DNA of 64,000 nucleotides, taken from contig JAHPZH010000001.1 of NCBI GenBank assembly GCA_019058315.1, forward strand, positions 71,938-135,937. The letters run 5' to 3'. The notes beneath the pieces are model-generated. The model did no database searches. It was not told the origin of the DNA and saw only the letters and a list, made by a program, of their open reading frames with translations. The translations under genes were made by a program, and so were the position numbers. Positions 1,506 to 28,309 of the stretch are shown one piece after another. The first letter of the stretch is position 1, and each line of letters opens with the position of its first letter. Source of the stretch: Candidatus Helarchaeota archaeon (GTDB lineage: Archaea > Asgardarchaeota > Lokiarchaeia > Helarchaeales > RDOG01).

Positions 1506-1997
1506 ATGAGCGATAAACCCAATCATAGGGTGAAAGGTTACCCATTTTATATACCTAAACCTGTTATAAAAAAAGATGAAAAAGAAATAGGACCTTATGA
1601 GATATTGGAAAGAAAATTTAGCCAAATTTATTCTTACATCAAAGAATGGGATACAAAAAAGCTCGAAGAACTTATACTTTATTTAATTAGGCGAATAAAA
1701 AAAATGGTAATAAAGAAAGAATTAAGTATGGAGGAGAAAGATGATGATCCTTTCGTAAGAAATTCTGATATTCCAATTTTCATTAAAGGATGGGAAGTAG
1801 AGGAGCTCGAAGAACTCATATCATTTATAATAAAGAGAATGGAAAAAACAATTAAAGATGGATATAAAAAAATAATTTCAATATATGTTAATAAAATCAA
1901 AGAAATGAAGAAAGCTGAAATGGAAAAATTGAAGGATGCTGAACGAACTCCAATAAACGATTCTTCTATTCGTTATGGTGTTTACAAACAAGATTAG
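1506..1997 (+). CDS. hypothetical Lys/Glu-rich helical protein with an internal duplication
   Basis: 163-aa ORF with a duplicated segment (EWDTKKLEELILYLIRRIKKMV / GWEVEELEELISFIIKRMEKTI). It ends 11 nt before the GTPase gene. No family recognised. Confidence 0.5.
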   Translation: MSDKPNHRVKGYPFYIPKPVIKKDEKEIGPYEILERKFSQIYSYIKEWDTKKLEELILYLIRRIKKMVIKKELSMEEKDDDPFVRNSDIPIFIKGWEVEELEELISFIIKRMEKTIKDGYKKIISIYVNKIKEMKKAEMEKLKDAERTPINDSSIRYGVYKQD

Positions 1998-2008
1998 TTC
2001 GGAGTTTA

Positions 2009-2956
2009 TTGACTTTGAGTGAAAAAAAATTTAATATTTCTTTTTTAGGATTATATAATGCGGGGAAATCGTCTTTTTTACGTTCATTAAATAATACACC
2101 AAAAAATCAACAAATAGTTGGTAAGACTAGAGGTCCAAATAAAATGGAAATTGAAATTTTGGGTTTTAAATTATATTTATTCGATTTTGGGGGCTTTAAA
2201 GAGCATAGAAATAATTTTCTAGAAAAAAAAGGCAATTATATCAACACTGATTTAATTTTTTATATCGTTGATACTCAAGATAACCACACATTCGGCGATT
2301 CTGTCGAATTTTTTGGCAAAATGCTTCAAGAATTAGAAAAAAATGAAGCCAAGCCAAAAATTGTCGTGTGCCTTCATAAATGTGACCCAGAATTACTTTC
2401 AGATAAGTTTTCATTTATTTATGAAAACTTAAAATTCTTAAACAGCTTATTTAGGAACAGAAGTAAGGGATGGGAAATAACTTATTTGCAGACATCAATT
2501 TATAATTACTCGAGTCTAGTCCGAGCTTATATTAAAGGATTAATAAAAATATTTGTAGATCCTCCAATTATAATGAATACTATCTTTAAAGAATTTATGG
2601 ATAAAACTGATTTCGATGGTATATGCCTTTTTGATCAAGATGGTTTAATTCTATTTGAATTGTATAATCAGACACCATATGCTAGAAAAATCATTGAAGT
2701 AATTGGTTTAAATATGGCACAAATGTCTGAAAAATTAATATCTTATAACGTTGGATTCCCTAATTCGATTCAGGTAGATATGAAGGGACAAACCTTTTTT
2801 AGAAATTTTGAATTAGAGAATGGAAATCGATATTATTTAACAATTTATTCCCGAGATATTGAAAATTTTGAAAAAATTAATAATTCTTTGCCATATTTTA
2901 CCGATACTATTTCAAATGCTATGGAAGATATATTAATTATGATTTCAGATAGGTGA
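2009..2956 (+). CDS. Rag/Gtr-like small GTPase with a C-terminal roadblock-like domain
   Basis: TTG start. G1 is GLYNAGKS, G3 is DFGG, G4 is HKCD (the HKxD variant typical of RagA/Gtr1 rather than NKxD), and G5 is QTSIYN (compare TSIWD in Rag/Gtr1). The C-terminal ~130 aa (FDGICLFDQDGLILFEL...YYLTIYSRD) has an alternating beta/alpha pattern like the Rag roadblock domain. Confidence 0.7.
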   Translation: MTLSEKKFNISFLGLYNAGKSSFLRSLNNTPKNQQIVGKTRGPNKMEIEILGFKLYLFDFGGFKEHRNNFLEKKGNYINTDLIFYIVDTQDNHTFGDSVEFFGKMLQELEKNEAKPKIVVCLHKCDPELLSDKFSFIYENLKFLNSLFRNRSKGWEITYLQTSIYNYSSLVRAYIKGLIKIFVDPPIIMNTIFKEFMDKTDFDGICLFDQDGLILFELYNQTPYARKIIEVIGLNMAQMSEKLISYNVGFPNSIQVDMKGQTFFRNFELENGNRYYLTIYSRDIENFEKINNSLPYFTDTISNAMEDILIMISDR

Positions 2957-2962
2957 TATGAT

Positions 2963-3574
2963 TTGGCAGATGTTCCATTAGAAAGATGTCCAAAATGTGA
3001 TAAAAAACTGATATATCTCAAAGTGAAGCGAAAAAACGATAAGGCAGAGGTAGAAGCTATCTGTCTAGAAGGTCATAAGAAATCCTTTACCACGCCGTTA
3101 GCGAAAAAACCAGCATGGGTTCGTCTCATGGCTCAAAGAATTCTATCCTGTGCTGTTTGTGGAGGGCGTGCAGTTCCAGATAGAGATACAATGAAAAAAG
3201 AAAAATATAAAGATAAATTTAAGGTTAGATGTAGAACGGGTTGTAATGATAAATATGAAAGGGAAGTAGCAAAAGGATTGGCTGATGCTATAAGGAGAAT
3301 GATAGCTAAATCAAGAAAAATGGGTGTAAAACCATTTCAAAAACCTTTTCCCAAACCTGGTGTAAAACCTTATCCGCGAAGAGGTGGTAGATATCCTCGT
3401 CGAAAACCAAGTGGTATGCAGCCAAAACCTAGAATTAAATTAATTGTACCTGAAGAATGTCCAAAATGCGATGCACCTTTAAAGAAGGAACAAATAGAAC
3501 AACTAAGAAAAAATGAAGTTGTTGAGTGTAAATATTGTGGTAGTGCAATCCAAGCTGAAAGAGAAGAAATTTAA
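2963..3574 (+). CDS. multi-zinc-ribbon protein with a Pro/Lys/Arg-rich linker (paralog of 4637-5074)
   Basis: TTG start 6 nt after the GTPase stop. CxxC pairs: CPKCD...CAVCGG...CPKCD...CKYCG. The linker is KPFQKPFPKPGVKPYPRRGGRYPRRKPSGMQPKPR. It aligns by eye with ORF 4637-5074 along its zinc-ribbon parts. Confidence 0.6.
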   Translation: MADVPLERCPKCDKKLIYLKVKRKNDKAEVEAICLEGHKKSFTTPLAKKPAWVRLMAQRILSCAVCGGRAVPDRDTMKKEKYKDKFKVRCRTGCNDKYEREVAKGLADAIRRMIAKSRKMGVKPFQKPFPKPGVKPYPRRGGRYPRRKPSGMQPKPRIKLIVPEECPKCDAPLKKEQIEQLRKNEVVECKYCGSAIQAEREEI

Positions 3575-7825: not shown

Positions 7826-8398
7826 TTATTTAATAAGGAATGTAAACGCTTGAGGAGCGTATGCTATAATTCCTCCTAAAATAAATCCAAGAATTGCCGG
7901 TCCTGCGTCTTTAAATGCAATTGACAAAGAATGAAGTATTAATATAAGTGACCAAATAGTAAAAACTGCTGTTACAATGCCTACTGGGATTGCCATTTCA
8001 GGAATTATCCCTAAAAGTGAAAAAGCGTTTACAATTACTAATGGAAAATTTGAGTATCCAGTTGCTCTAAAAGTATGCAAAATAGAATTTGCTTCTCCAC
8101 CAACTGCATTACCTATCAAGTAAGTGAAAATCCACCATAGAATCGGGGTTGTTACTCGAAAAATTGCTTCTAATGCGATTCTTAAAGTGCTGTAAATCCC
8201 AAAGAATACAGGAGCCCATATAGCATAAGTTTTATCTGAAACTAACAAGTAACTTAAGACACCTAAGCCAATTGATAATATAAAATATATAGCTGCCATT
8301 AAAGTTGATCCTTCGTCATCTATGATTTGTTCAAGATTCTCTTTTTTATTACGCATAAAATTTTTTAATTTATTCAATTCCTCACTCATCAAAATCAC
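7826..8398 (-). CDS. multi-pass membrane protein (possibly Yip1-domain-like)
   Basis: 190 aa. A short polar N-terminus is followed by about five hydrophobic helices. The family assignment is tentative. Confidence 0.4.
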   Translation of the reverse strand: MILMSEELNKLKNFMRNKKENLEQIIDDEGSTLMAAIYFILSIGLGVLSYLLVSDKTYAIWAPVFFGIYSTLRIALEAIFRVTTPILWWIFTYLIGNAVGGEANSILHTFRATGYSNFPLVIVNAFSLLGIIPEMAIPVGIVTAVFTIWSLILILHSLSIAFKDAGPAILGFILGGIIAYAPQAFTFLIK

Positions 8399-13047: not shown

Positions 13048-16000
13048 TTAATCTGATTTATCAGTTTTATCTTTCAATGGAAGGTGTGAATTAGGTCCTT
13101 TTTTACTCATCTTACCTTTAGGCTCTTTTTTAATCTTCTTGGTTTCACTTTTTGTTCCTCTTTTAGTTATCATTATTCCCGCAATTAGAGAAGCTGCAGC
13201 TACAACCCCTAATATTACCAAACCAATTGGCGACATTAATGATTTTAAAATATTATCGTCTGTTGATGTCCCCGGTAAAGGCAAAATAAACTCTTCTGGT
13301 CCAGGTTCTGGTGCAATAACTACATATTGATAAGGTCCCGCGGTATAATCGTTATCGTATGTATCATTAACCCAGATCGAGTAAGCTATTCGTGTCCCAA
13401 TAGGAGAAACCGGAATAGTAAAGTTCCAATAACCATCTAGAATAGTCCCCGATAGTAGATCCATTGTATAATAAGTCGGGGTTCCAGTGTGATTTGAATT
13501 AATTAAAACCGTATCTACTCCCAGATTATCAGTAATATGAACAGTGATATTAACTACTTCTAGCTGATTAGGAGTAGTTGGGTCTCTTGAAACTGATATT
13601 ATATTGGGATCTTCAGAGTCGCTGACTGTATATTGGTATGGTCCATCAGAGTCTTGATTATTAGTTGTATCATTTACCCAGATCGAATAAGTTATTGTAA
13701 TTCCTGCGGAATAAACCGGTATAGTAAAGTTCCAATAACCATCTAGAATAGTCCCCGATAGTAGATTCAATGTATAATTGGTTTGTGTTCCAGTATGATT
13801 TGAATTAAATAAAACCGTATCTACACCTAGATTATCAGTAATGTGAACAGTGATATTAACTGTATCTAGCTGATTAGGACTGGTGGGATCTCTTGAAACC
13901 AGAAGTATATTGGGATCTTCGGAATCACTAATTGTATATTGGTATGGTCCATCGGTGTCTTGGTTGTTAGTTGTATCATTTACCCAGATCGAATAATTTA
14001 TTGTAATTCCTGCAGGATAAGCTGGTATAGTATAGTTCCAATAACCATCTTGAGCCGTCCCTGAGAGTGGGTCCATGGTATAATTTGTTTGCGTTCCATT
14101 ATGATTTGAATTAATTAAAACCGTATCTACACCTAGATTATCAGTAATGTGGACAGTGATATTAACTGTATCTAGCTGATTAGGGCTGGTGGGATCTCTT
14201 GAAACTAGAAGTATATTGGGATCTTCAGAATCACTAATTGTATATTGGTATAATCCATCGGTGTCTTGGTTGTTAGTTGTATCATTAACCCAAATCGAAT
14301 AATTTATTGTAATCCCTGCAGGGTAAGCTGGTATAGTATAATTCCAATAACCATCTTGAGCAGTCCCTGAAAGTGGGTCCATGGTATAATTTGTTGGCGT
14401 TCCAGTATAATTTGTATTAATTAAAACCGTATCTACTGCCATGTTATCAGTAATATGTACGGTAATATTTACTATATCCGACTGATTAGGGGTAATAGGA
14501 TCTCGTGAAACTAAAATTATATTTGGATCTTCCGCATCACTAATTATATATTGATATGGTCCATCAGTTGCATTATTATTGCTAGTATCATTGACCCAGA
14601 TCGAGTACATTATTGTGGTTCCAGCGGGATAAGATGGAATAGTATAGTTCCAATAACCATCTCGAGTAGTACCAGATAGGTGATCCATTGTATAATTAAT
14701 TGGTGTTCCAGTATGATTTGAATTAATTAAAACGATATCTACTCCTCTGTTCTCAGTAATATGCACAGTTACACTTACTGTATCCAAATTACTAGGGTTA
14801 GTTGGATTCCTTGAAGTTAGTATTATATTTGGATCTATCTTATCAATAGGCCACTCAAAGCAAGAATACATTATTTCTGCATCTATTCCCCATTCACCGT
14901 CCGTATTATCATACCATACTACTGATATGTTTCCTTTATTGTCTGTAGCTATTTGAGGATTGAGGCTACCACCATCATTCCAAAGTGTATAATCTTCTGA
15001 AACTACTGACACATTAGACCAACCAGACGTAGAGGTATAATTTATATAAAAAATTTCATCATCAATTCCCCATTCACCATCTGTCATATCATACCAAACT
15101 ACGTATAAAGTTCCACTATTATCCGCTGCTATGTCAGGTGCTAAACTCAAATCAGTATTCCAATGTGTATAATCATCTGAAACTACCGTTGCATTAGACC
15201 ATCCAGAGGAGGTATAATTTGTATACATTACTTCTCTATCAGTTCCCCATTCACCATTTGTCGAATCTTCCCAAACAACATGAATACTACCATTAATATC
15301 CGTATCGATACTGGGATATTCGCTACCACCAGTATTCCACCCGAATAAATCTGAAATCGCAGTAACATTCGACCAACCTGCTCCTGTATTATTTACATAC
15401 AAAATTTCATTATCAGAACCCCATTCACCATTTGTTTGATCCCACCAAACAACATGTTGGTATCCATTATTATCAACAGCAATTTGAGGGTTATTACTTC
15501 CACCATCATTCCATCCAGTATAATCGTCTGAAATTACAGTTGCATTAGACCAACCTGAAGCAGTATAATTTACATACATTACTTCCAAATCCGTCCCCCA
15601 TTCACCAGCCGTAAGATCCTGCCAGACCACATGAATAGTCCCAGTATTTTCATCTATAGCGATGCTTGGAGCACCACTAACACCATCATTCCATCCGTAA
15701 ATATCTGAAATAACAGTTACATTAGACCAGCCAGCCCCTGTATTATTAACATACATTACTTCATAATCAGTACCCCATTCCCCATCTGTCCCATCCCACC
15801 AGACAACGTGTAAATTTCCATTGTTGTCTATTGCGATGCTTGGATCACTACTAGGACCATCATTCCAGTTAGTGTAATCGTCTGAAATTACAGTTGCATT
15901 GGACCAGCCAGTAGCAGTTAAATTTGCATACATTATTTCTCTGTCAGTTCCCCATTCGCCATTTGTATCATCATGCCAGACTACATGTACTACTCCATTA

Positions 16001-17478
16001 TTATCCATAGCTATATCAGGATTATAACTATGATCATCATTCCATCCCATATAAAATGGATGATCTGAAACTGCGGTTACATTCGACCAACCTGATCCTT
16101 TGTAAACATGTAATATATCTGTATCGGTTACTCCACCTCCCCATATACCGGCTGTATTATCATCCCAGACAACATGAACATTTCCAGTATTATTGTCTAT
16201 TGTTATACTTGGATTATTACTAGAACCATCATTCCATCCAGTCTGATTATCAGAAATTACTGTTGCATTAGACCATCCTGAAGCTGTATAATTTGTATAC
16301 ATTATCTCCTGATCAGTTCCCCATTCACCATCTGTATCATCTGCCCATACCACATGTAAAATGTCATTATTATCTATTGCAATATCACCAGCAACACTGG
16401 CTCCGTCATTCCATCCTGTTATATCATCCGAAATCACTGTAGCATTAGACCAACCTGATACGGTAAAGTTAACATAAAATATTTCCCAATCTGCTATTGT
16501 CTGGTCTTCCCAAATCACATGTATCACAGAATTATTATCAGTTACAATCTTGGGATATAAACTTTCTAAATCATTCCATCCATATACATCTGAAATTACT
16601 ATAGTATTGGATACACCAGATGCAGAATAATTTGCATACATGATCTCAGGATCTGATAAACCTCCACCCCAAGCTCCTGTCGTCCAATCATGCCAAACCA
16701 CATGCACTATTCCATTTTTATCAACAGCGATATCAGGATATTCACTATGACCATCATTCCAATTTGTAATATCATCTGAGATTAAAGTTACATTAGTCCA
16801 ACCAGTTCCTGTATTATTAACATACATTATTTCTTCATCAGTTCCCCATTCACCATCTGTATCTTCGGTCCAGACTACATGTATATTTCCATTAGTATCA
16901 GTTGCAATACTAGGTGCATAACTACCACCATTATTCCATCCAGTAATATCATCTGATATTACTGTTGCGTTAGACCAACCAGAAGCCGTATAGTTAGCAT
17001 ACATGATTTCTCTATCAGTTCCCCATTCCCCATTTGTGTCATCATCCCAAACTACATGGATATTTCCATCATTATCTGTAGCTATTCGAGGATTAACACT
17101 CCAACCATCGTTCCAACCGAAAAGATCCGAAATTACTGTTATATTGGACCAGCCAGAAGATGTAAAGTTTGCATACATTATTTCTCTGTCAGTTCCCCAT
17201 TCGCCATCTGTATCATCAGTCCAAACTACGTGAATATTTCCATCTTTATCAACAACTATATCAGAGTCCCAACTAAGATCCCTGTTCCAGTACATGGTCC
17301 TTTTAGTGTCTGTGATAACTGTAGCATTTGACCAATTAGAATCATTCAAATTCATAGTATTTAAATTAAAACCATTGTTGTTAACTATTGGAAACGGTAC
17401 ATTTATAGTAAGTCTATGTGGAATTGTACTTAATATTGTAAGTAACAGAAATTGAGATAAAATTAGACTTAAGATCAA
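13048..17478 (-). CDS. giant (1476 aa) repeat-rich surface protein with a signal peptide, TM anchor and basic tail
   Basis: Hydrophobic N-terminus, 14 propeller-like repeats, 5 beta-sandwich-like 102-aa modules, a TM segment (GLVILGVVAAASLIAGIMI) and a Lys-rich tail. NxS/T sequons are very frequent. Confidence 0.85.
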   Translation of the reverse strand: MILSLILSQFLLLTILSTIPHRLTINVPFPIVNNNGFNLNTMNLNDSNWSNATVITDTKRTMYWNRDLSWDSDIVVDKDGNIHVVWTDDTDGEWGTDREIMYANFTSSGWSNITVISDLFGWNDGWSVNPRIATDNDGNIHVVWDDDTNGEWGTDREIMYANYTASGWSNATVISDDITGWNNGGSYAPSIATDTNGNIHVVWTEDTDGEWGTDEEIMYVNNTGTGWTNVTLISDDITNWNDGHSEYPDIAVDKNGIVHVVWHDWTTGAWGGGLSDPEIMYANYSASGVSNTIVISDVYGWNDLESLYPKIVTDNNSVIHVIWEDQTIADWEIFYVNFTVSGWSNATVISDDITGWNDGASVAGDIAIDNNDILHVVWADDTDGEWGTDQEIMYTNYTASGWSNATVISDNQTGWNDGSSNNPSITIDNNTGNVHVVWDDNTAGIWGGGVTDTDILHVYKGSGWSNVTAVSDHPFYMGWNDDHSYNPDIAMDNNGVVHVVWHDDTNGEWGTDREIMYANLTATGWSNATVISDDYTNWNDGPSSDPSIAIDNNGNLHVVWWDGTDGEWGTDYEVMYVNNTGAGWSNVTVISDIYGWNDGVSGAPSIAIDENTGTIHVVWQDLTAGEWGTDLEVMYVNYTASGWSNATVISDDYTGWNDGGSNNPQIAVDNNGYQHVVWWDQTNGEWGSDNEILYVNNTGAGWSNVTAISDLFGWNTGGSEYPSIDTDINGSIHVVWEDSTNGEWGTDREVMYTNYTSSGWSNATVVSDDYTHWNTDLSLAPDIAADNSGTLYVVWYDMTDGEWGIDDEIFYINYTSTSGWSNVSVVSEDYTLWNDGGSLNPQIATDNKGNISVVWYDNTDGEWGIDAEIMYSCFEWPIDKIDPNIILTSRNPTNPSNLDTVSVTVHITENRGVDIVLINSNHTGTPINYTMDHLSGTTRDGYWNYTIPSYPAGTTIMYSIWVNDTSNNNATDGPYQYIISDAEDPNIILVSRDPITPNQSDIVNITVHITDNMAVDTVLINTNYTGTPTNYTMDPLSGTAQDGYWNYTIPAYPAGITINYSIWVNDTTNNQDTDGLYQYTISDSEDPNILLVSRDPTSPNQLDTVNITVHITDNLGVDTVLINSNHNGTQTNYTMDPLSGTAQDGYWNYTIPAYPAGITINYSIWVNDTTNNQDTDGPYQYTISDSEDPNILLVSRDPTSPNQLDTVNITVHITDNLGVDTVLFNSNHTGTQTNYTLNLLSGTILDGYWNFTIPVYSAGITITYSIWVNDTTNNQDSDGPYQYTVSDSEDPNIISVSRDPTTPNQLEVVNITVHITDNLGVDTVLINSNHTGTPTYYTMDLLSGTILDGYWNFTIPVSPIGTRIAYSIWVNDTYDNDYTAGPYQYVVIAPEPGPEEFILPLPGTSTDDNILKSLMSPIGLVILGVVAAASLIAGIMITKRGTKSETKKIKKEPKGKMSKKGPNSHLPLKDKTDKSD
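13314..14843 (-). repeat. five tandem ~306-bp (102-aa) coding repeats
   Basis: The unit DPNI--VSRDP--PNQ-D-VNITVHITDN-GVDTVLINSNH-GT-TNYTMD-LSGT--DGYWNYTIP-YPAGITI-YSIWVNDT-NN recurs five times. DNA blocks such as gatcttc-gaatcactaattgtatattggtatggtccatc recur about every 306 nt. The middle copies are near-identical. Confidence 0.85.
14850..17337 (-). repeat. fourteen tandem ~60-66-aa coding repeats (beta-propeller-blade-like)
   Basis: The unit GWSN-TVISDD-TGWNDG-S--P-IA-DNNGN-HVVW-D-TDGEWGTD-EIMY-NYT- recurs. I counted 14 HVVW-type cores. Confidence 0.8.
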
Positions 17479-19619: not shown

Positions 19620-22085
19620 TTGATGAAAAAATGGATAAAAAAAGAGGAAAAGCAAATGAAAATTAAAAATTATTTATTTTTTACTATTATTCTAATTTCT
19701 TGTGTAGCACTTTCAAGTACACTACTCGATTCCCAAGTAACAATTCCAATTGAGACTATTTCAACGATTAAAAAGCAAAATAAATTATTGGATATAAATG
19801 CGATACTTGATAATATTACAGGAGAATGTAATGCAAGAATTTCTAATCTCTATCATTATGAGAATACCACATTTTCCCAATTCAATAATACAGATAATTT
19901 TACTGTAACTTATCCAGCAAATGGATCTTATCCGACAATAGATTTTGGTAATTTGACTCTTTCAAAATTATCCTTATTAACTATAGCAATGACTGATACT
20001 TTTGTGGAGAAACCAGTAGCTAATAACAGTTCAAGGGCAAAAAATGGAACTGAATTTTATAATGCATATCAACTTGCCCAAAATTTTTCTATTAATGAAA
20101 CATCTCAAGTAAGCAATTTCCATTTATATGTAAAATATCGAAATCTTGGAGCAGTCCTTCCTGGTATAGCTGGAATTGTGTTTGCTAATATTTATAGAGA
20201 AGAAGATTTTAATGGAACTGATTTTGAAGGTGACCCAGTAAATACATATGAGTTATACGGAGGTCTAGCCGATGGTGGAGGGGCGTGGCTCGAAGGTTGG
20301 CTACCAATCGAATTCAACAGTCTATTAGTAAAAGGTAATTATTTTCTAGTAACCTATGTTCAAAGTTTGAGTATAATTCTTAGCCCTAATAATAACAGTT
20401 GGCAAATTCAAAATTATTCAATCCCCTTTCAAGATAAAGGAGTAAGTATGTTTCAAAATGGTACTGGACATTGGAATAATATTTCGGAAGATGGGAATGC
20501 AGATTTTTTACTAACATTAGAAATTGCTCCATATATTGATCCGAGAAAATGGAATTTAACTTGTTATGTAGATAATCAAAAACTAGATCTTATTCATTAT
20601 GAAGAGCCAAATCCCCGTTTTCTAAAATTTCCTTGGACAAGTTACGTCGATTATTATCTTCCTTCTATTCCAAACCAAGATATTAATGTGACTTTTACAA
20701 CAAACCAAACTTTAGGTTGGGTAGTAGTTGGTGCTACATATAGATATATAAATTCTGTAGAAGCTAATGGAACTTTTATAGCTAATTTGAAAAGCCGTAA
20801 GTGGGTTATAAATTATACTTCAGTAAATTCGACTGCTGAAGTATTTCCAATATTTACTTTCCCCTCTGATTGGACAATCAACAAATTCTATAATAGATTT
20901 TATCAGGAAATTATAGAATATGGGATTATGTATTCGAGTATTTATAATGAAACACTTAATGGTCTTTATTATCCTGAAACAGGGGATGGGGAGACAACAT
21001 TTAACTTTTCGGCAATATTTACTTCCCATAATTATGTAAGTAGTATTAACCCCCAGCTCCGTTCTGGAGTTAACTTTAAGAACCAATTCAATTTTAAAGA
21101 AGGAGATACAATAAGATTACAAGCTATAATACAAGATTCTATAGAAAATCCCGCCTCGGGTGGAAATTGCAGTTTTTATATATTTAATCCCTCAAATAAT
21201 TCAATATATTTTGAAAATACAACTGCAATTAATGGTATAGCCAACTCGAATAATATATCAACTTCTGGTTGGGATATAGGCGATTATGTTATTGTAACTA
21301 CATGGACAAATGGGTCTGAAATAGGCTTTAGCTCATTTACATTTTCACTACAAGAGGAAAAAGTACCTTTAATTCCACCCCTTTTCGCAACACCAGAACC
21401 TATATGGTTGTATATTATTACTACTGCTTTAGTTGTGTCAATGGTAATGGTGGGAGGTCTAATAGTAAGACGTAAATTACAAGAGAGAAATTGGGAAAAA
21501 TCTCTTCTACACTTATTCATAATGGCAAAGGATGGGAGATCGATGTATAATTATCCATTTGGGCTTGTAACTAAAGATCCAACTTTAATTTCTGGTATGC
21601 TAACCGCTATGACAAGTTTTGTGAAAGAAACTGTCGGAAGTAAAAAACAATTAAGAACAATTGATCAACAAGATAAAAAAGTTATACTTGGGCATGGGGC
21701 TGTATCCACCGTAGCTGTGTTTGCTGAAAAGGATATATCTATTATCCATAATAAAACTGATGAGTTTCTAGAAGCATTTGAAAGAACGTATGGCTTCAAG
21801 ATAGAACACTGGGATGGATCAACTGAGGTGTTTAAAGGAGTAAATAAATTAGTGGAGAAATATTTTCCAGTTTCTGTTGAATCCAAAATTATCCAAGGCG
21901 TAAGTAGAGAGTTACTTGAATTGAAAGAACGTATAATGTCTACTAATGATCCTAATGAAATTCTTTCTTTACTACAAGAATTCGCAAGCTTAGCTGAAAG
22001 ATACCAAGATGTCATAAGAGAACATTTTAATAAAGAATATGGAGAAATTTTAAAAATTGCTAATAAAAAAATTCAAAATCAGTAA
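19620..22085 (+). CDS. single-pass receptor-like glycoprotein with a longin/roadblock-like cytoplasmic domain (paralog A)
   Basis: 821 aa. N-terminal anchor, a ~570-aa sequon-rich ectodomain, TM (IWLYIITTALVVSMVMVGGLIV), then a ~200-aa cytoplasmic domain (LLHLFIMAKDGRSMYNYPFG...DPTLISGMLTAMTSFVKE...) with a bb-a-bbb-a pattern. Confidence 0.75.
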   Translation: MMKKWIKKEEKQMKIKNYLFFTIILISCVALSSTLLDSQVTIPIETISTIKKQNKLLDINAILDNITGECNARISNLYHYENTTFSQFNNTDNFTVTYPANGSYPTIDFGNLTLSKLSLLTIAMTDTFVEKPVANNSSRAKNGTEFYNAYQLAQNFSINETSQVSNFHLYVKYRNLGAVLPGIAGIVFANIYREEDFNGTDFEGDPVNTYELYGGLADGGGAWLEGWLPIEFNSLLVKGNYFLVTYVQSLSIILSPNNNSWQIQNYSIPFQDKGVSMFQNGTGHWNNISEDGNADFLLTLEIAPYIDPRKWNLTCYVDNQKLDLIHYEEPNPRFLKFPWTSYVDYYLPSIPNQDINVTFTTNQTLGWVVVGATYRYINSVEANGTFIANLKSRKWVINYTSVNSTAEVFPIFTFPSDWTINKFYNRFYQEIIEYGIMYSSIYNETLNGLYYPETGDGETTFNFSAIFTSHNYVSSINPQLRSGVNFKNQFNFKEGDTIRLQAIIQDSIENPASGGNCSFYIFNPSNNSIYFENTTAINGIANSNNISTSGWDIGDYVIVTTWTNGSEIGFSSFTFSLQEEKVPLIPPLFATPEPIWLYIITTALVVSMVMVGGLIVRRKLQERNWEKSLLHLFIMAKDGRSMYNYPFGLVTKDPTLISGMLTAMTSFVKETVGSKKQLRTIDQQDKKVILGHGAVSTVAVFAEKDISIIHNKTDEFLEAFERTYGFKIEHWDGSTEVFKGVNKLVEKYFPVSVESKIIQGVSRELLELKERIMSTNDPNEILSLLQEFASLAERYQDVIREHFNKEYGEILKIANKKIQNQ

Positions 22086-22115
22086 TGTTCCATATTTCTT
22101 TATGGGGTAAAAATT

Positions 22116-24515
22116 ATGAGAAGAAAAAAAACCGTTTTTTGCTTTATATTATCAATATTTTTTGTTATTTGTTTCAATTCATTATTGATTTCACAAACTA
22201 TTGACTTATCTAAATTTGTTCGAATATCTGATAACCCTAATCAATTTTTAAAAATTAGCGCAATTCTCAATAACATTACAGGCAATTGCACTTCAGAAAT
22301 CTATAATTTACATGGTTTTGAAAATAATTCAATAGAAGGGTTCAACAATCCTATGAATTATACAAAAATGGTACCAGCTAATATAACGTTACCTAATTTT
22401 AACCATAGTTTAACTACTTCAAAATTTGAGTTTACTATAACCGCTATGACAGATCCTTTTACAACTTATAGCATAGCAAACGATACCTCAAATGCCATGA
22501 ATGCAACTGATGAAAATAATGCATACATGCTTGCTCAAAACTTTTCTATAGTTGAGCCTTCTCATATTGATTATATCTATCTATATCTAAATTATACAAG
22601 TTGGCTCCCTATAATTTGGGCTGGAATTGTAACTGTGTATATTTATAAAAGTGATCTGATTACCCCTGTTAATGAATATGGTATGTCAATTTTCTTACCA
22701 AATAGTGGAGGTTTTGGAAATTGGACCGCAGAATGGTTCAATGTTAGATTTAACAATATCTTACCAATAGGAAACTATTATTTAGTAATGTATACATCAA
22801 GTACAAGTATTAGGGCACCAAATAATAATAGCTGGCAAATTCAAAATTATACAAACCCAGATGATGATAAAGGGGCAACCTTAACAAAATATGGCAATGG
22901 TTCATGGATCCCAATTGAAAATGATGGTCATGCGGATTTCTTATTAATGATGAATAAATCTACATATGTTAGTCCTTATGATGTTAATCTATCTATTTAT
23001 GTTAATAATGATAAATTAAATTTAAATCATTATTATGAAGAAAATCCAACCTTTCTCAGATTTCCTTGGATAAGTAATGGGATATACTACATCCCTGCTG
23101 TTCCTACTAGTGATATCAACATAACAATTACGGTTGATCAAATTTTAGGATGGGGAGCAGTTATTACTACTACTAGATATGTCAAATTCTTACCAGCAGC
23201 CGGGAATTTTACAGCTTCGTTGGATAGTAGAAAGTGGTCTGTAAATTACACATCAATAAATTCTACTACTGCATTCCTTCCAGTATTTATCTTTCCTATA
23301 GACTGGTCTATTGATAAATTTTATAATAGATTTGGTCAGGAAGTAATAGAATATGGGATAATGTACTCGAAAGTTTATAATAAAACTTATAACGGTATTT
23401 ATTATCCAGAAACTGGAGATGGCGAAACTACATATAATTTTAGTGCCGAATTCACTTCTCTCAATTATGTAAGTAATATATTTCCTCAAATTTATAATGG
23501 AACTGGTTTCCAGACTCAATTCAGTTTTTATAAAGGAGATACAATAAGATTCCAAGCAAATATTCAAGATTCAGAAGGTAATTCGGCTATAAATGGAAAT
23601 TGTACATTTTATCTTTATAATCCCTCAAATAATCTAGAATATTCAGAAAATATTACGGTCGTGAATGGTATTGCTAATTCAGATAATCTAACTAATTTAC
23701 CTAGAGGCGAATATTTAATAATTGTAACTTGGACAAATGGCTCTCAAGTTGGTTTTAATTCATTCACATTTACAATTTCAACAGAAAAAGAATTTTATCC
23801 CTTTATCCCCCCTGCTCAACCAGAACCGATATGGTTATATATTATAACTACAGCTTTAATAGTTCTAACCGTCATGATTGGAGGTCTGATAGCTAGACGT
23901 AAATTACAAGAAAGGAACTGGGAAAAATCCTTACTGCATTTATTTATAATGAATAAAGATGGTCGAGCAATGTATGATTATCCTTTTGGGATAGAGCAAA
24001 AAGATCCAACTCTAATATCTGGTATGCTTACAGCTTTAACAAGTTTTATAAAAGAAACTGTTGGGAGTAAAAAGCAATTGAAAACGATTGATCAAGAAGA
24101 TAAAAAAGTTATACTTGGACATGGAACTTATAGCACTGTTGCAGTTTTTGCAGAAAAAGATCTACCTGTTATACATGAAAAGGCTGCTGAATTCTTAAAA
24201 ATATTTGAAGATTCTTTTTCATCGAAAATAAAACAATGGGATGGTTCAACCTCAATTTTTAAAGGAGTCAGTAGTATAGTTGAGAAATATTTTCCGATTT
24301 CGGCAGAAGCTAAAATTATTCAAGGCGTTGGGAAAGAACTATTATTATTAAAAGAAAGTATTAATTCGACTTCTGATCCACAAGAAGTAATTTCGTTATT
24401 ACAAAAAGTTACTGGATTAGCCGAAAGATATCAAGAAATTATAAGAGAACATTTTAATAAAGAATACGGCGAAATTTTAAAGATAGCAAATCAAAAAGTA
24501 ATCAAATTAGTCTAA
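22116..24515 (+). CDS. single-pass receptor-like glycoprotein with a longin/roadblock-like cytoplasmic domain (paralog B)
   Basis: 799 aa, collinear with 19620-22085. The ectodomain is moderately conserved. The TM and cytoplasmic domain are highly conserved (RRKLQERNWEKSLLHLFIM-KDGR-MY-YPFG...EHFNKEYGEILKIAN). Confidence 0.75.
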   Translation: MRRKKTVFCFILSIFFVICFNSLLISQTIDLSKFVRISDNPNQFLKISAILNNITGNCTSEIYNLHGFENNSIEGFNNPMNYTKMVPANITLPNFNHSLTTSKFEFTITAMTDPFTTYSIANDTSNAMNATDENNAYMLAQNFSIVEPSHIDYIYLYLNYTSWLPIIWAGIVTVYIYKSDLITPVNEYGMSIFLPNSGGFGNWTAEWFNVRFNNILPIGNYYLVMYTSSTSIRAPNNNSWQIQNYTNPDDDKGATLTKYGNGSWIPIENDGHADFLLMMNKSTYVSPYDVNLSIYVNNDKLNLNHYYEENPTFLRFPWISNGIYYIPAVPTSDINITITVDQILGWGAVITTTRYVKFLPAAGNFTASLDSRKWSVNYTSINSTTAFLPVFIFPIDWSIDKFYNRFGQEVIEYGIMYSKVYNKTYNGIYYPETGDGETTYNFSAEFTSLNYVSNIFPQIYNGTGFQTQFSFYKGDTIRFQANIQDSEGNSAINGNCTFYLYNPSNNLEYSENITVVNGIANSDNLTNLPRGEYLIIVTWTNGSQVGFNSFTFTISTEKEFYPFIPPAQPEPIWLYIITTALIVLTVMIGGLIARRKLQERNWEKSLLHLFIMNKDGRAMYDYPFGIEQKDPTLISGMLTALTSFIKETVGSKKQLKTIDQEDKKVILGHGTYSTVAVFAEKDLPVIHEKAAEFLKIFEDSFSSKIKQWDGSTSIFKGVSSIVEKYFPISAEAKIIQGVGKELLLLKESINSTSDPQEVISLLQKVTGLAERYQEIIREHFNKEYGEILKIANQKVIKLV

Positions 24516-24601: not shown

Positions 24602-25099
24602 ATGAAGAACTGGAATAAATTATTAATCATTAAGTGGAGTAGAAATAAGATGGAAGAACTTTTTAAATCTATGGAAAAAAGGATATCTAACTTAAAGAAG
24701 TTAAGTGAATTAATGGTACAAATGAAGGATATTTCTCAATTAATTAAAGGCGACATTCAAAAACTTGATGATTTCAAGGATATGATAAAAGTTAACGAGT
24801 TAGACGAATGGTCTTTTAGTTTAATAAAGAATTTGCAGGAAATTGAAAAAACACAAGCTATTGAAATAGGAAAAGCCGACTTAAAACTAAGTGATTATAA
24901 TTTTCTTAATTGGGAAAATGTGCGTAAAGGACTTTCCGAAAGGGGTGTAAAAGTGATTAAGGATGAACAAGTAAAGCACTTTTTTAATAATGCAATGGTC
25001 ATTGCAATGCAATATTTCACATCCAAGGAAAAAGCAAGAGATAAAGCCAAAAAATTAGTTAAAGAAAGCCGAAAACAAATTAAAAAAAGAAAAAAATAA
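24602..25099 (+). CDS. hypothetical coiled-coil protein
   Basis: 165-aa Lys/Glu-rich ORF with no recognisable motifs. Coding status rests on ORF length alone in AT-rich DNA. Confidence 0.4.
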   Translation: MKNWNKLLIIKWSRNKMEELFKSMEKRISNLKKLSELMVQMKDISQLIKGDIQKLDDFKDMIKVNELDEWSFSLIKNLQEIEKTQAIEIGKADLKLSDYNFLNWENVRKGLSERGVKVIKDEQVKHFFNNAMVIAMQYFTSKEKARDKAKKLVKESRKQIKKRKK

Positions 25100-25271: not shown

Positions 25272-27026
25272 ATGTCGACTAATCAAGAGAATGCAGTTGA
25301 AGTAACGGATTTATTGAAATATTATAATCTTTCGTCTGGTGAAAGATTAACAGCATTAGATTCTATATCTTTTAATTTAAAAACTTCCGAAATCGTAGGT
25401 ATAATAGGTAAATCTGGCGGAGGTAAAACTACCTTACTTAGAATATTAAGAGGGGTTGAACCTTTTAATGGAGGAAAATTCATTCTTCGTGATAAAAATG
25501 GTGAAATTATTTTAACTCCTGATTCACCTGAAAGTCTCTTCCGTGAAGCAAAAAAGAAGACAGTTATACATTTACAACGTTCCTTTGGTCTATGGGCCAC
25601 AACTGCTTTAGATAATGTAATGAGAAGATTAAATGCTCTAAAGACTGACGATGAAACTGCTCCATTACCAGAAGATTATACAAGTGAATATCAAGAGCTG
25701 AAGGAGAAAGCCCTTGAAATTTTAGATGCAGTAAAATTAAAACATAAAGCGGATCAAGTTGCTCCTGTTATGAGTGGTGGGGAAAAACAACGTCTAGTGT
25801 TAGCTCGACAATTAGCAATTGCAGGTTCCGAAAGAAATATGGGGAAAATATTGCTTCTGGATGAACCTGTTACTATGTCTGACCCATTAACTAAACAAAT
25901 TTCATTAGATTATATAAAGGAATTAAGAAACAAGTATAATCTTTCTATTCTTGTAGCCAGTCACCACCCCCAGTTATTGGAGTACTTAAGTGATAGAATA
26001 ATATGGTTAGAAAAGGGTAAAATTATCAAGATAGGAGATCCAAAGGAAATTGTCAAAGGATTTTTAGATAAAATGCCTGATCCAATTCCTTTAGAACCTC
26101 TTAAATCAAAAAAACCGATAATATCAGTTAAAAATGTTTCTAGGAAATTTTATACGCCTGAAGTGTTAAAGTTAGAGTTCGATATGTCAAACATAAATTT
26201 TGAAGTTTTTGACAGTGAAATTCTGGGTATAATAGGTCCTTCTGGAATTGGAAAAACAGTATTATTAGAATTACTTTCTGGAGTAACTTTACCAAAAGAT
26301 GGCGAAGTACTTTACAATATTATTGGTAAAAACGTCAATATCGGTGTGTTAGGAGAAGAAGCAATGATGTCAAGACGTAATATAAGTTATGTTAGACAAG
26401 AACTTTCGCTTACTCATAATGCAATAGTTAAAGATTTAGCTGCTGCTACATTAGGTCTTAAGGGAGAAAGAGCACTCTATAATGCCAGAAAAAAAGCGAA
26501 AGAACTTAATATTCGTGAAGAGATAATTGATGTTCTTCACCGGTTAAGTGATCTTCCCGATTCTGAGGTGAATATAAGATTGGAAAAACTTGGTTTAGAT
26601 AAAAGTATAATTCATGATTTGTTTCCAATACCTCCATGGTCAGCTATTTCAGACATAGTAATACCTATTTTTAACGAATTTGATCTCCCTTCAAAAATAT
26701 TAGAACGTAAAACGCAAGAACTTTCTGGCGGTGAAAGTATAAGAGTTGCAATTGCATTAGCTCTGCTCTCCAGCCCAAAGGTAATTATTTTAGATGAACC
26801 ATTTGGTGATTTAGATCCTAATACATTACGAAATTTAGCAAATATGATAAAAAGAGTAAATAAAATGGATGTAACCATAATAATTGTTTCTCATCATACA
26901 GAATTTCTTAAAGAAGTCACACATCGTGTTATTTATATGAAGGAAGGAAAGCTTCTTAAAATTGGAGACCCTGATGAAATTACTAAGGAATTTTTAAAGG
27001 ATAGTAGTGCAGAATTCATGTATTAA
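25272..27026 (+). CDS. tandem-NBD ABC-type ATPase without a permease domain (AtwA/component-A2-like or ABC-F-like)
   Basis: Two ABC cassettes. Cassette 1: GKSGGGKTT / MSGGEKQR / LLLDEP. Cassette 2: GPSGIGKTV / LSGGESIR / IILDEP. No hydrophobic segments. Confidence 0.8.
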   Translation: MSTNQENAVEVTDLLKYYNLSSGERLTALDSISFNLKTSEIVGIIGKSGGGKTTLLRILRGVEPFNGGKFILRDKNGEIILTPDSPESLFREAKKKTVIHLQRSFGLWATTALDNVMRRLNALKTDDETAPLPEDYTSEYQELKEKALEILDAVKLKHKADQVAPVMSGGEKQRLVLARQLAIAGSERNMGKILLLDEPVTMSDPLTKQISLDYIKELRNKYNLSILVASHHPQLLEYLSDRIIWLEKGKIIKIGDPKEIVKGFLDKMPDPIPLEPLKSKKPIISVKNVSRKFYTPEVLKLEFDMSNINFEVFDSEILGIIGPSGIGKTVLLELLSGVTLPKDGEVLYNIIGKNVNIGVLGEEAMMSRRNISYVRQELSLTHNAIVKDLAAATLGLKGERALYNARKKAKELNIREEIIDVLHRLSDLPDSEVNIRLEKLGLDKSIIHDLFPIPPWSAISDIVIPIFNEFDLPSKILERKTQELSGGESIRVAIALALLSSPKVIILDEPFGDLDPNTLRNLANMIKRVNKMDVTIIIVSHHTEFLKEVTHRVIYMKEGKLLKIGDPDEITKEFLKDSSAEFMY

Positions 27027-27037
27027 GAGGGAAAATA

Positions 27038-28309
27038 ATGTCGAAGCTTACTCCAGAACAACAAAAAAAATATGATAAAGCTCTAAAATTATATGCCAAA
27101 GCAGAGAAAATGATTGCAAAACAGAAATTTGATAAAGCAAAAGATAACTTCAAAAAAGCGATTAATGAATTCTATTCAATGCAGGCATATGCACAAGCCC
27201 AGAAAATTATTAATAAATTTGTAGAATCCGCTTTAATAGAAAAAGAATATCAAGAAGCCGCTGTTGCCTTGTATCAAGCTGCAAATATCGCCTTAATTGA
27301 AAATAAGGTCAAAAAAGCACTAGAAAATTATAAATCATCAATTAATTTTTTTATAGAACAATCAGGATTTAGCAAGAAAAATGAAGATATAAAATATAAC
27401 GCTTTATGCCTTTCTCCTCTTTGTGAAGCCGCATTAGGTAAATTTGAGTATGCAATTGATTATTTTAAAACAAACCTTAATCAAATTCCTCGCCGATTTA
27501 GAATCAAACTCCCAATTGTTGATTTTTGCACTTCAATTTTTAATACGCTTATTACTAAAAAGATTGAAAATCTAAATAATTCTAAAACAATTTTAAAAGA
27601 TTTAAAGTTACTAGAAGGCGAAACAATATTACTCGAAAATCTCATAAGTATTGCTGAACTTTATGTAAAAACTAAAATCGAATCTCGTCTAAATAAAGAA
27701 AAAATAGAAGCAGGGGATAGTTTTTCTTTAAATATTTCATTAAACTCGCCTGAAAATATAGAAATTCTTAAATATTATTTGGATTATGACACACAACGAT
27801 TAGAATTAACTAATGTACCAAAAATTTCTGAGAATAAACCTATTGAATTTATATTCGATGCTAAAGTTCAAGGGAAGGCAAAATTTGGACCTCTTTTATT
27901 AACATGTAAGGCAAAAGAAATAGAGTTTCCTTTTAAATATCAAAGCATTTTAAACATATTACCAGGGAGACCAAGACTTCAAATAGATGCTCAAAGTGAG
28001 ATAAATATATTCGAGGGTGATGCCTTTGATTTTGATTTCGAAATAACAAATAGAGGTAAAGGAGAGGCTATTAATTTAGCTGTAACACTTGAGGTTCCCG
28101 AAGAAATTATGATCATAGCAGGCACTAAAGAAAAAAAACTTTATTCCCTAAATTCTCAAGAAAATTATATTTTCACATTTCCTCTACAAGCCATAAAGAG
28201 CGGAGCTTATGAAGGAAAAATCCTTATTAGTTTTGAAATTCCTCGAGGTATTTCTAGTAAGCCGGAAGAGATAGAGGAAGTAAAAACAATTAATTTTAAA
28301 GTTACTTAA
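27038..28309 (+). CDS. hypothetical protein: helical-repeat N-terminus plus two beta-sandwich (CARDB/NEW3-like) C-terminal domains
   Basis: 423 aa. The start is 11 nt after the ABC ATPase stop. The C-terminal pattern FEITNRGKGEAINLAVTLEVPEEI is typical of CARDB-like domains. No signal peptide seen. Confidence 0.5.
   Translation: MSKLTPEQQKKYDKALKLYAKAEKMIAKQKFDKAKDNFKKAINEFYSMQAYAQAQKIINKFVESALIEKEYQEAAVALYQAANIALIENKVKKALENYKSSINFFIEQSGFSKKNEDIKYNALCLSPLCEAALGKFEYAIDYFKTNLNQIPRRFRIKLPIVDFCTSIFNTLITKKIENLNNSKTILKDLKLLEGETILLENLISIAELYVKTKIESRLNKEKIEAGDSFSLNISLNSPENIEILKYYLDYDTQRLELTNVPKISENKPIEFIFDAKVQGKAKFGPLLLTCKAKEIEFPFKYQSILNILPGRPRLQIDAQSEINIFEGDAFDFDFEITNRGKGEAINLAVTLEVPEEIMIIAGTKEKKLYSLNSQENYIFTFPLQAIKSGAYEGKILISFEIPRGISSKPEEIEEVKTINFKVT

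Follow-up and report, generated by a model that had tools for sequence, protein, structure and literature searches.

What do two adjacent genes for hypothetical proteins place on the surface of an Asgard archaeon, and what do they hold beneath its membrane? We asked this of a paralogous gene pair at 19620-24515 of a 64,000-nucleotide stretch of DNA from 'Candidatus Helarchaeota' (here called the window; about 30% G+C, source contig positions 71938-135937). Each product has a C-terminal tail that in all probability is a longin domain lying on the cytoplasmic side of the membrane. The reading that we favour as a whole, to which we give somewhat better than an even chance, is that the two proteins are longin-tailed surface glycoproteins and that the tail acts as a membrane-fixed platform for a soluble partner, most likely a small GTPase.

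Architecture of the gene pair and fold of the tail

Gene 1 (19620-22085, + strand) encodes a type-I membrane glycoprotein of 821 aa when read from a TTG codon. Alternative starts lie at ATG 19623, where an 820-aa form of the product found in a public collection (P0154) would begin, and at ATG 19656, which is M13 and gives a signal-peptide-like start. Gene 2 (22116-24515, + strand) follows on the same strand after 30 bp and encodes a paralogous glycoprotein of 799 aa, with an overall identity to the gene 1 product of 57% (BLASTP). The original prediction had described two neighbouring genes for single-pass proteins of these lengths, and both open reading frames (ORFs) were indeed found open, with one internal transmembrane (TM) helix in each translation. 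Both proteins, annotated as hypothetical, are composed of a basic and then hydrophobic N-terminal signal-like segment, an ectodomain of about 555 aa, the TM helix and a tail of about 205 aa. When both proteins and their tails were scanned, no threshold of Pfam or NCBIfam was reached.

The topology was judged from hydropathy and sequon statistics, not from dedicated predictors. In gene 1 the putative signal peptide covers residues 13-38 (19656-19733, + strand), in which a basic stretch precedes a peak of hydropathy (residues 18-38). The TM helices are found at residues 595-616 of gene 1 (21402-21467, + strand) and 572-593 of gene 2 (23829-23894, + strand), both directly followed by the basic sequence RRKLQERNWEK, in which R, W and K are nearly invariant across the family of related ~780-aa proteins. 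Sequons of the N-x-S/T type are strongly concentrated before the TM helix (29/30 in gene 1 and 27/28 in gene 2), and the ectodomains hold many more of them than expected from composition (29 versus 10.1 and 27 versus 11.3, respectively), with a single one in the gene 1 tail (1.1 expected; 0.6 expected in the gene 2 tail). On the strength of this asymmetry, the signal segment and the basic residues that follow the TM helix, the large part of each protein was placed outside the cell and the tail inside, in line with the cytoplasmic tail originally proposed. The proteins thereby show the features of type-I N-glycosylated surface proteins, namely a signal segment, a sequon-rich outer part and one TM helix flanked by basic residues on the inner side. 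The occurrence of the same tail domain in soluble, GTPase-fused proteins also fits a cytoplasmic location.

The tail was clearly the better conserved part of the two proteins, as had been claimed, with 73% identity between gene 1 and gene 2 compared to 51% in the ectodomain. An earlier estimate by eye of 40-45% for the ectodomain holds for its N-terminal half (43%), but not for the whole, since the C-terminal half reaches 58%. The TM helix is 80% identical, the longin part of the tail (135 residues after the TM helix) 76% and the last 70 residues, forming its helical part, 68%; the conserved tail motif quoted in the original prediction occurs in both translations. Synonymous divergence (dS) is about 1.3, which is near saturation, and is equal in ectodomain and tail, whereas the ratio of nonsynonymous to synonymous divergence (dN/dS) falls from 0.30 for the ectodomain to 0.14 for the tail; the contrast between the two regions is therefore one of stronger purifying selection on the tail. 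The equal dS of the two regions also rules out recent gene conversion as a cause of the conserved tail. Comparison with orthologs gave the same contrast, with identities of 22-29% for the ectodomain but 42-51% for the tail.

A longin or roadblock-type domain had been suggested for the tail from the order of its strands and helices, with structure prediction of the C-terminal ~200 aa as the check, and that prediction gave a longin fold. The AlphaFold2 (AF2) model of gene 1 residues 612-821, computed from an alignment of 55 sequences, had a predicted local distance difference test score (pLDDT) of 93.7 and a predicted template modelling score (pTM) of 0.82. It runs from a juxtamembrane helix through the order strand-strand-helix-strand-strand-strand-helix-helix to a four-helix bundle. 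In DSSP numbering of the model, the longin part has a five-stranded antiparallel sheet (strands 18-25, 30-35, 69-72, 75-81 and 85-91) and helices at 43-61, 96-118 and 124-137, which matches the longin order. The domain thus modelled covers residues 628-752 of gene 1 (21501-21875, + strand) and, by its identity to that of gene 1 and a match to the family hidden Markov model (HMM) at E 8e-40, residues 605-729 of gene 2 (23928-24302, + strand).

When the tail model was compared with the PDB using Foldseek, only longin or roadblock proteins were returned (E 2e-5 to 6e-4), including AP2 sigma, COPI, Mon1-Ccz1, LAMTOR, TRAPPC1 and MglB. VIA-align gave Z 14.2 for TRAPPC4 (121 residues, root-mean-square deviation (rmsd) 2.4), 13.9 for Fuzzy, 13.0 for Sec22b and 12.6 for VAMP7, and solved longin domains in general aligned over 113-123 residues at Z 12-14 and rmsd 2.4-3.2; a solved Lokiarchaeota longin dimer (8yqg) matched at Z 11.0. 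Roadblock chains, among them MglB, LAMTOR2 and MK-D1 roadblocks, also matched at Z 11-12, and one of the 55 family members gave a weak match to Robl_LC7 (E 0.0066), so that the tail could instead be thought of as a roadblock/MglB-type domain forming a platform for GTPase activation in the manner of MglB. The roadblock chains covered 99-105 residues only and left out the last helices, whereas longin chains include both C-terminal helices; longin is preferred because its chains align over more residues at higher Z. The Pfam matches among the 55 members also lean towards longin and not roadblock families (four to Intu_longin_1 and four to Fuz_longin_1, all sub-threshold), and we regard the roadblock alternative as quite improbable. 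At the sequence level the link to longins is an indirect one, through an HMM built on the family within this genome that joins both tails to paralogs matching Pfam longin families. Of these, the distant paralog L023 is the sole one to pass a threshold (Fuz_longin_1, 40.8 bits with a cut-off of 26.1), while L020 matches Intu_longin_1 at E 3.3e-4. Searching the PDB by sequence, with the single tail or its profile, gave nothing significant, with TRAPPC1, Trs23 and MON1A appearing at E 0.5-1.6. Taken as a model, the tail is confidently predicted to be a longin domain on the cytoplasmic side.

Behind the longin domain, the helical bundle spans residues 753-819 of gene 1 (21876-22076, + strand; model helices 142-163, 167-183, 185-191 and 193-208) and residues 730-796 of gene 2 (24303-24503, + strand). 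It is kept across orthologs and specific to the ~780-aa family, and was covered by none of the structural matches that VIA-align gave for the tail model.

The ectodomain of gene 1 (residues 39-592, 19734-21395, + strand) was modelled with AF2 over residues 36-592 from a 35-sequence alignment, giving a pLDDT of 87.1 and strands only; the ectodomain of gene 2 (residues 28-569, 22197-23822, + strand) was placed by alignment with it. A lectin-like jelly roll is predicted at about residues 126-305 of gene 1 (19995-20534, + strand), matching the lectin-like domain of Cwp84 (4ci7_A) at Z 12.4 over 150 residues with an rmsd of 3.3, and also jelly rolls of capsids and phage tails. Close to the membrane, at about residues 470-583 (21027-21368, + strand), the model shows a beta-sandwich resembling macroglobulin (MG2) and immunoglobulin (Ig)-like domains, with Z 13.0 to MG2 of complement C5 (rmsd 1.8, 100 residues), Z 12.8 to alpha2-macroglobulin and Foldseek template modelling scores of 0.75-0.77 by target. 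For the middle part (about residues 306-469) no specific structural match was found within searches using the whole-ectodomain model. Gene 2 gave a weak Pfam match to Big_1, and a feature search of the ESM Atlas (score 0.80) pointed, as a lead only, to archaeal clusters with Lectin_like and Big_1 domains. These modelled domains are such as would be expected for a binding or adhesion protein and name no ligand. Each protein is modelled, from the N-terminus, as built of a signal peptide, a glycosylated all-beta ectodomain with a lectin-like jelly roll, a middle beta domain and an MG/Ig-like stalk, the TM helix, the longin domain and the bundle.

The longin-tail family and the age of the duplication

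A genome-wide search with the tail returned 90 matches, and an iterated profile collected 143 ORFs, which were sorted by hydropathy and length. The family HMM matched gene 1 and gene 2 at E 6e-38 and 8e-40, with the longin domain directly after the TM helix. The front ends to which the domain is joined were found to be interchangeable. About 20 of the 143 ORFs are stand-alone domains and about 32 carry the domain first, including Ras-like GTPase fusions (six in all) and a protein with a winged helix (L024). Around 45-50 have several, mostly four to seven, hydrophobic helices in 349-399 aa with the domain last, 11 are TPR proteins of about 1120 aa, and one is a fusion with a transporter of the major facilitator superfamily (MFS). 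About 12 are single-pass, sequon-rich proteins of 514-2607 aa, three of which belong to the ~780-aa family. Longin-tailed membrane proteins are thus common in this organism, and the single-pass glycoprotein with an extra bundle is one variant among them. A survey of the domain architectures of homologs had been set as a check in the original prediction, where a receptor bearing such a domain was considered an unusual design; the survey, with the same tail on 143 ORFs of one genome, gave the opposite picture. Outside this genome, the profile matched 119/121 genomes of the phylum and 861 representative clusters at E < 0.001. The tails of the pair belong to a phylum-wide Asgard domain family.

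Some members and look-alikes of this family deserve mention in their own right. The transporter fusion (L032, C5:824007-825629) has about 10 TM helices by hydropathy ahead of the longin tail, a form that recalls transporter-linked GTPase platforms such as SLC38A9-Ragulator. Two relatives, P0023 (1128 aa) and P0070 (714 aa), carry the longin tail followed by a KaiC/RecA-type ATPase (PF06745, E ~1e-21). In the ESM Atlas, the shape made up of the juxtamembrane helix and the longin-like domain matched archaeal clusters of DUF11/CARDB surface proteins (Thermoplasmatota and Methanobacteriota) as well as large bacterial OmpA-family clusters, with a template modelling score of about 0.57 by query. Membrane-tethered domains of longin-like fold may hence be spread wider than Asgard archaea.

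The full tail of 210 residues, including the helical bundle, is considerably more restricted in its distribution, with 16 representative clusters, mostly of proteins of 750-800 aa. The nearest named relatives are hypothetical proteins of metagenome-assembled genomes of 'Candidatus Helarchaeota' and 'Promethearchaeota'. An ectodomain ortholog of about 750-810 aa, usually in single copy, was found in 34/151 genomes of the class, and a third copy of the family in the present genome lies on contig C11 (L069, 788 aa). A family tree separated a widespread single-copy clade, to which the C11 copy belongs, from a clade with the tandem pair. The tandem arrangement recurs in two Helarchaeota contigs (L033 and L034), and gene 1 groups with the first genes of those pairs with SH-aLRT support of 96, because of which the duplication is old; the two genes have since been kept side by side. 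A predicted complex of the gene 1 and gene 2 tails scored 0.51-0.59 with one control at 0.36, which speaks neither for nor against pairing.

Synteny with L033 extends to a racemase-family gene and a gene for a ~370-390-aa protein upstream, and to a set of three genes downstream. Between the syntenic upstream genes and the pair, the window also encodes a surface protein of 1476 aa (13048-17478, - strand), absent at this place in L033, with many repeats of about 45 aa (WGTD-EIMY type), 4-5 copies of a ~95-aa domain, a C-terminal TM helix and a basic tail.

Candidate partners of the tail

If the topology and the fold are as modelled, the longin tail would be a platform, fixed in the membrane, on which a soluble partner from the cytoplasm (most likely a small GTPase) docks or is regulated, and the position or the ligand of the ectodomain would decide the site of its recruitment or switching. 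The tandem arrangement would suit a two-subunit longin platform of the kind known from eukaryotes. The identity of the partner as a small GTPase is a tentative proposal that we hold at a little less than even. In its most specific form, it would mean that the paired tails of gene 1 and gene 2 act as a TRAPP- or Mon1-Ccz1-like platform that recruits or activates a lipid-free Asgard small GTPase at sites of contact between the lectin-like ectodomain and a ligand or partner cell; we consider this elaborate version unlikely.

Coupling of the tail to a GTPase is plausible from the fold and from patterns at the level of the family. Outside of SNAREs and coat adaptors, solved longin domains are mostly GTPase platforms, and six longin paralogs in this genome are fused to Ras-like GTPases. 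The nearest non-orthologous paralog of the pair, a 1570-aa single-pass glycoprotein (L030), appears to form an operon with a Ras-family GTPase gene that lies 13 bp downstream on the same strand. Furthermore, 33% of the longin genes were found within 5 kb of a GTPase gene, compared to 16% of other ORFs.

Two loci with such neighbours are worth describing separately. At C2:80180-86451 (L030, L004 and L070), a gene for a longin protein of 276 aa stands divergently upstream of L030, and the region has the look of a receptor-longin-GTPase unit; the loci of this kind retrieved from other genomes were short ones. The copy on C11 (L069, C11:572586-577630) lies 1.7-2.1 kb from convergent genes for a stand-alone longin protein (137 aa) and a Ras-like GTPase (191 aa).

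Several observations weigh against the GTPase-platform reading. With regards to the fold, all structures are predicted, and neither protein nor tail matched any Pfam longin family at E up to 1. With regards to gene neighbourhood, the nearest GTPase gene to the pair, a Rag-like one, is 16.7 kb away, which is at chance level; at ortholog loci in other genomes, any GTPase was found within ~5 kb in only 5/14 cases, with differing subfamilies; and a conserved GTPase neighbour was not found across the 14 ortholog loci and the C11 copy. The proximity of longin and GTPase genes in the genome as a whole, at 33% versus 16%, counts related and tandemly arrayed genes, so that their independence is overstated. 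Finally, the same longin tail precedes a KaiC-like ATPase in P0023 and P0070 and a winged helix in L024.

As for the ortholog loci in detail, a Rag-like gene was found 350 bp upstream in G031 and 1.7 kb away in G005, Ras-like genes 1.7-5 kb away in three more genomes, and no GTPase gene within ~8 kb in the remaining 9/14. Except for two from one genus, these GTPases are orthologous neither to each other nor to the GTPase of the window.

The Gtr1/RagA-like GTPase of the window (2009-2956; PF04670, E 1.3e-16), to which the original prediction had drawn attention, is truly present, and it could be imagined as the specific partner of the pair, held by a Ragulator-like anchor. Its presence in the same 64 kb and the different Rag-like genes close to the G031 and G005 orthologs would agree with this, whereas unrelated genes of either strand fill the 16.7 kb between it and the pair, in L033 the 10 kb around the syntenic pair hold no GTPase, and the G031 and G005 GTPases best match other genes of the present genome (C11:392049 and C1:192904). 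The genome holds about 110 small-GTPase ORFs (about one per 53 kb), 24 of them closer to the Rag-like type, and the chance of one of these 24 lying this close to the pair is ~13%. Because at this density of GTPase genes one within 16.7 kb is expected by chance, and the GTPases near orthologs elsewhere are not its orthologs, the Rag-like gene gives no evidence for coupling, and we find it very improbable as the specific partner. It is closely flanked (1506-3574, + strand) by ORFs of 163 aa, without a family match, and 203 aa, with a zinc-ribbon-like end, which are possible partners of this GTPase. Elsewhere in the window (7826-8398, - strand) a Yip1-domain membrane protein is encoded (PF04893, E 2.7e-11); eukaryotic Yip1 proteins interact with Rab GTPases.

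The non-GTPase partners joined to the same tail suggest that the longin tail may be a general adaptor. As a full alternative, it would be an adaptor or dimerisation module with no GTPase role, tying an adhesin or lectin to a scaffold, the cytoskeleton, an ATPase or a protein with SNAP-like TPR and Ig-like parts. The longin domain does stand beside many unrelated modules (TPR scaffolds, MFS, winged helix and KaiC-like ATPase), the ortholog loci lack a conserved GTPase neighbour, and a single-copy gene for a protein of the last kind, 423 aa in length, lies close to the pair, with its ortholog beside a receptor ortholog in four genomes of another genus. This is set against the GTPase platforms formed by most solved longins, the six fusions and the apparent operon of the sister receptor described above, and the 423-aa gene is unlinked in most receptor-bearing genomes. 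We consider the general adaptor possible but on balance doubtful.

The 423-aa protein (27038-28309, + strand) has a SNAP-like TPR front (gamma-SNAP, E 2.7e-6) and a beta-sandwich rear; Pfam SNAP was matched in 17/21 orthologs, and the rear matched TRAP_beta, TRAPPC13_C and DUF11 weakly. Its gene, which follows the pair at a distance of 2.5 kb (7.4 kb in L033), is preceded by genes for a 165-aa coiled-coil protein (24602-25099) and a double ABC ATPase (25272-27026), and the trio is kept in L033. Orthologs were found in 130/151 genomes of the class; four genomes of another genus have them adjoining the receptor ortholog, four more have them within 11-17 kb of it, and in most other genomes the two are on different contigs. 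The proximity may reflect either old synteny or a functional tie.

Since the longin domain is followed by some 70 aa of helices and a nearby gene encodes a protein whose TPR region is SNAP-like, one might also think of a SNARE-like fusion protein in reverse order, having TM helix, longin domain and helical SNARE-type segment, possibly serviced by the SNAP-like protein. That notion is barely credible, as a SNARE would have its TM helix on the other side of the longin domain, neither protein has a Synaptobrevin or SNARE Pfam match, the helices pack in the model into a compact bundle that forms a single unit with the longin domain (at the pTM of 0.82), and SNAP matches are common among generic TPR proteins such as L029.

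Significance and comparison with known systems

For the question of how trafficking arose in eukaryotes, it matters how the ~100 small GTPases of an Asgard cell gain access to membranes and are controlled. According to PMC4917890 (Table 1), Lokiarchaeum has neither CAAX motifs nor prenyltransferases, because of which its GTPases need another route to the membrane. One concrete candidate for an anchor is this conserved family of glycoproteins, which hold a longin domain directly beneath the membrane; the genome has multi-helix, MFS and TPR versions besides. Being labelled hypothetical and lacking a match to any Pfam model above threshold, both proteins escape surveys that go by annotation. If the paired longin platform were true, it would represent a prokaryotic pathway from surface receptor to small GTPase and possibly a forerunner of the longin exchange factors that are localised to membranes. 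Should the tail bind no GTPase, longin domains would still serve the membrane proteins of Asgard archaea as a general output module on the cytoplasmic side.

Membrane-tethered platforms of roadblock or longin type that hold a small GTPase are known from Ragulator-Rag at the lysosome and SRX-SRbeta of the SRP receptor. LAMTOR2 of Ragulator matches the tail at Z 11-12, but Ragulator is anchored by lipidated LAMTOR1 and has no ectodomain; in SRX-SRbeta, also lacking an ectodomain, the TM helix is on the GTPase. The longin SNAREs (Sec22b, VAMP7 and Ykt6) resemble the pair in having membrane-anchored, cytoplasmic longin domains (Z 11-13), whereas their order is longin, SNARE motif and C-terminal anchor, and in the pair the TM helix comes before the longin domain and no SNARE motif was detected using Pfam.

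Longin dimers form GTPase platforms in TRAPP, Mon1-Ccz1 and Fuzzy-Inturned (PMC10933270). The TRAPP core with TRAPPC4/Trs23 and TRAPPC1/Bet5, an exchange factor for Rab1/Ypt1, contains the best match of the tail (TRAPPC4 as 2j3t_D; 3cue_C gave Z 12.3) and likewise has two related longin subunits, here encoded side by side. Its subunits are however soluble, with neither TM helix nor ectodomain, the sequence identity to the tail is 8-10%, and only one longin-tail family member gave a weak match to Sybindin (E 0.0036). Mon1-Ccz1 (Rab7) and Fuzzy-Inturned (Rab23) are heterodimers of paralogous longin proteins, similar in that respect to the paralogous longins of the tandem pair. The Fuzzy match noted above is to its first longin domain, Mon1 matches at Z 11-11.7, and the one paralog above a Pfam threshold passes Fuz_longin_1; these complexes differ in having three longins per chain and in being recruited to membranes via lipids or proteins, not by a TM helix of their own.

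Closest in kind are the Asgard longins themselves, described in the literature as soluble longins or as fusions to GTPases or two-component proteins (PMC4917890, PMC10933270). No account of a TM- or ectodomain-linked Asgard longin was found in the literature covered, which did not include the tables of Klinger et al. 2016. The pair shares with the known Asgard proteins the same domain family, the GTPase fusions present in its own genome and the match to 8yqg. With the multi-helix and TPR longin proteins of this genome, the genes of which are often paired, it shares the same tail by HMM and the juxtamembrane R-x-W motif, and it differs from them by its large glycosylated single-pass ectodomain and by the C-terminal bundle confined to the ~780-aa family. 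Asgard longins and longin-GTPase fusions are known, while the longin-tailed single-pass glycoprotein appears to be a new form.

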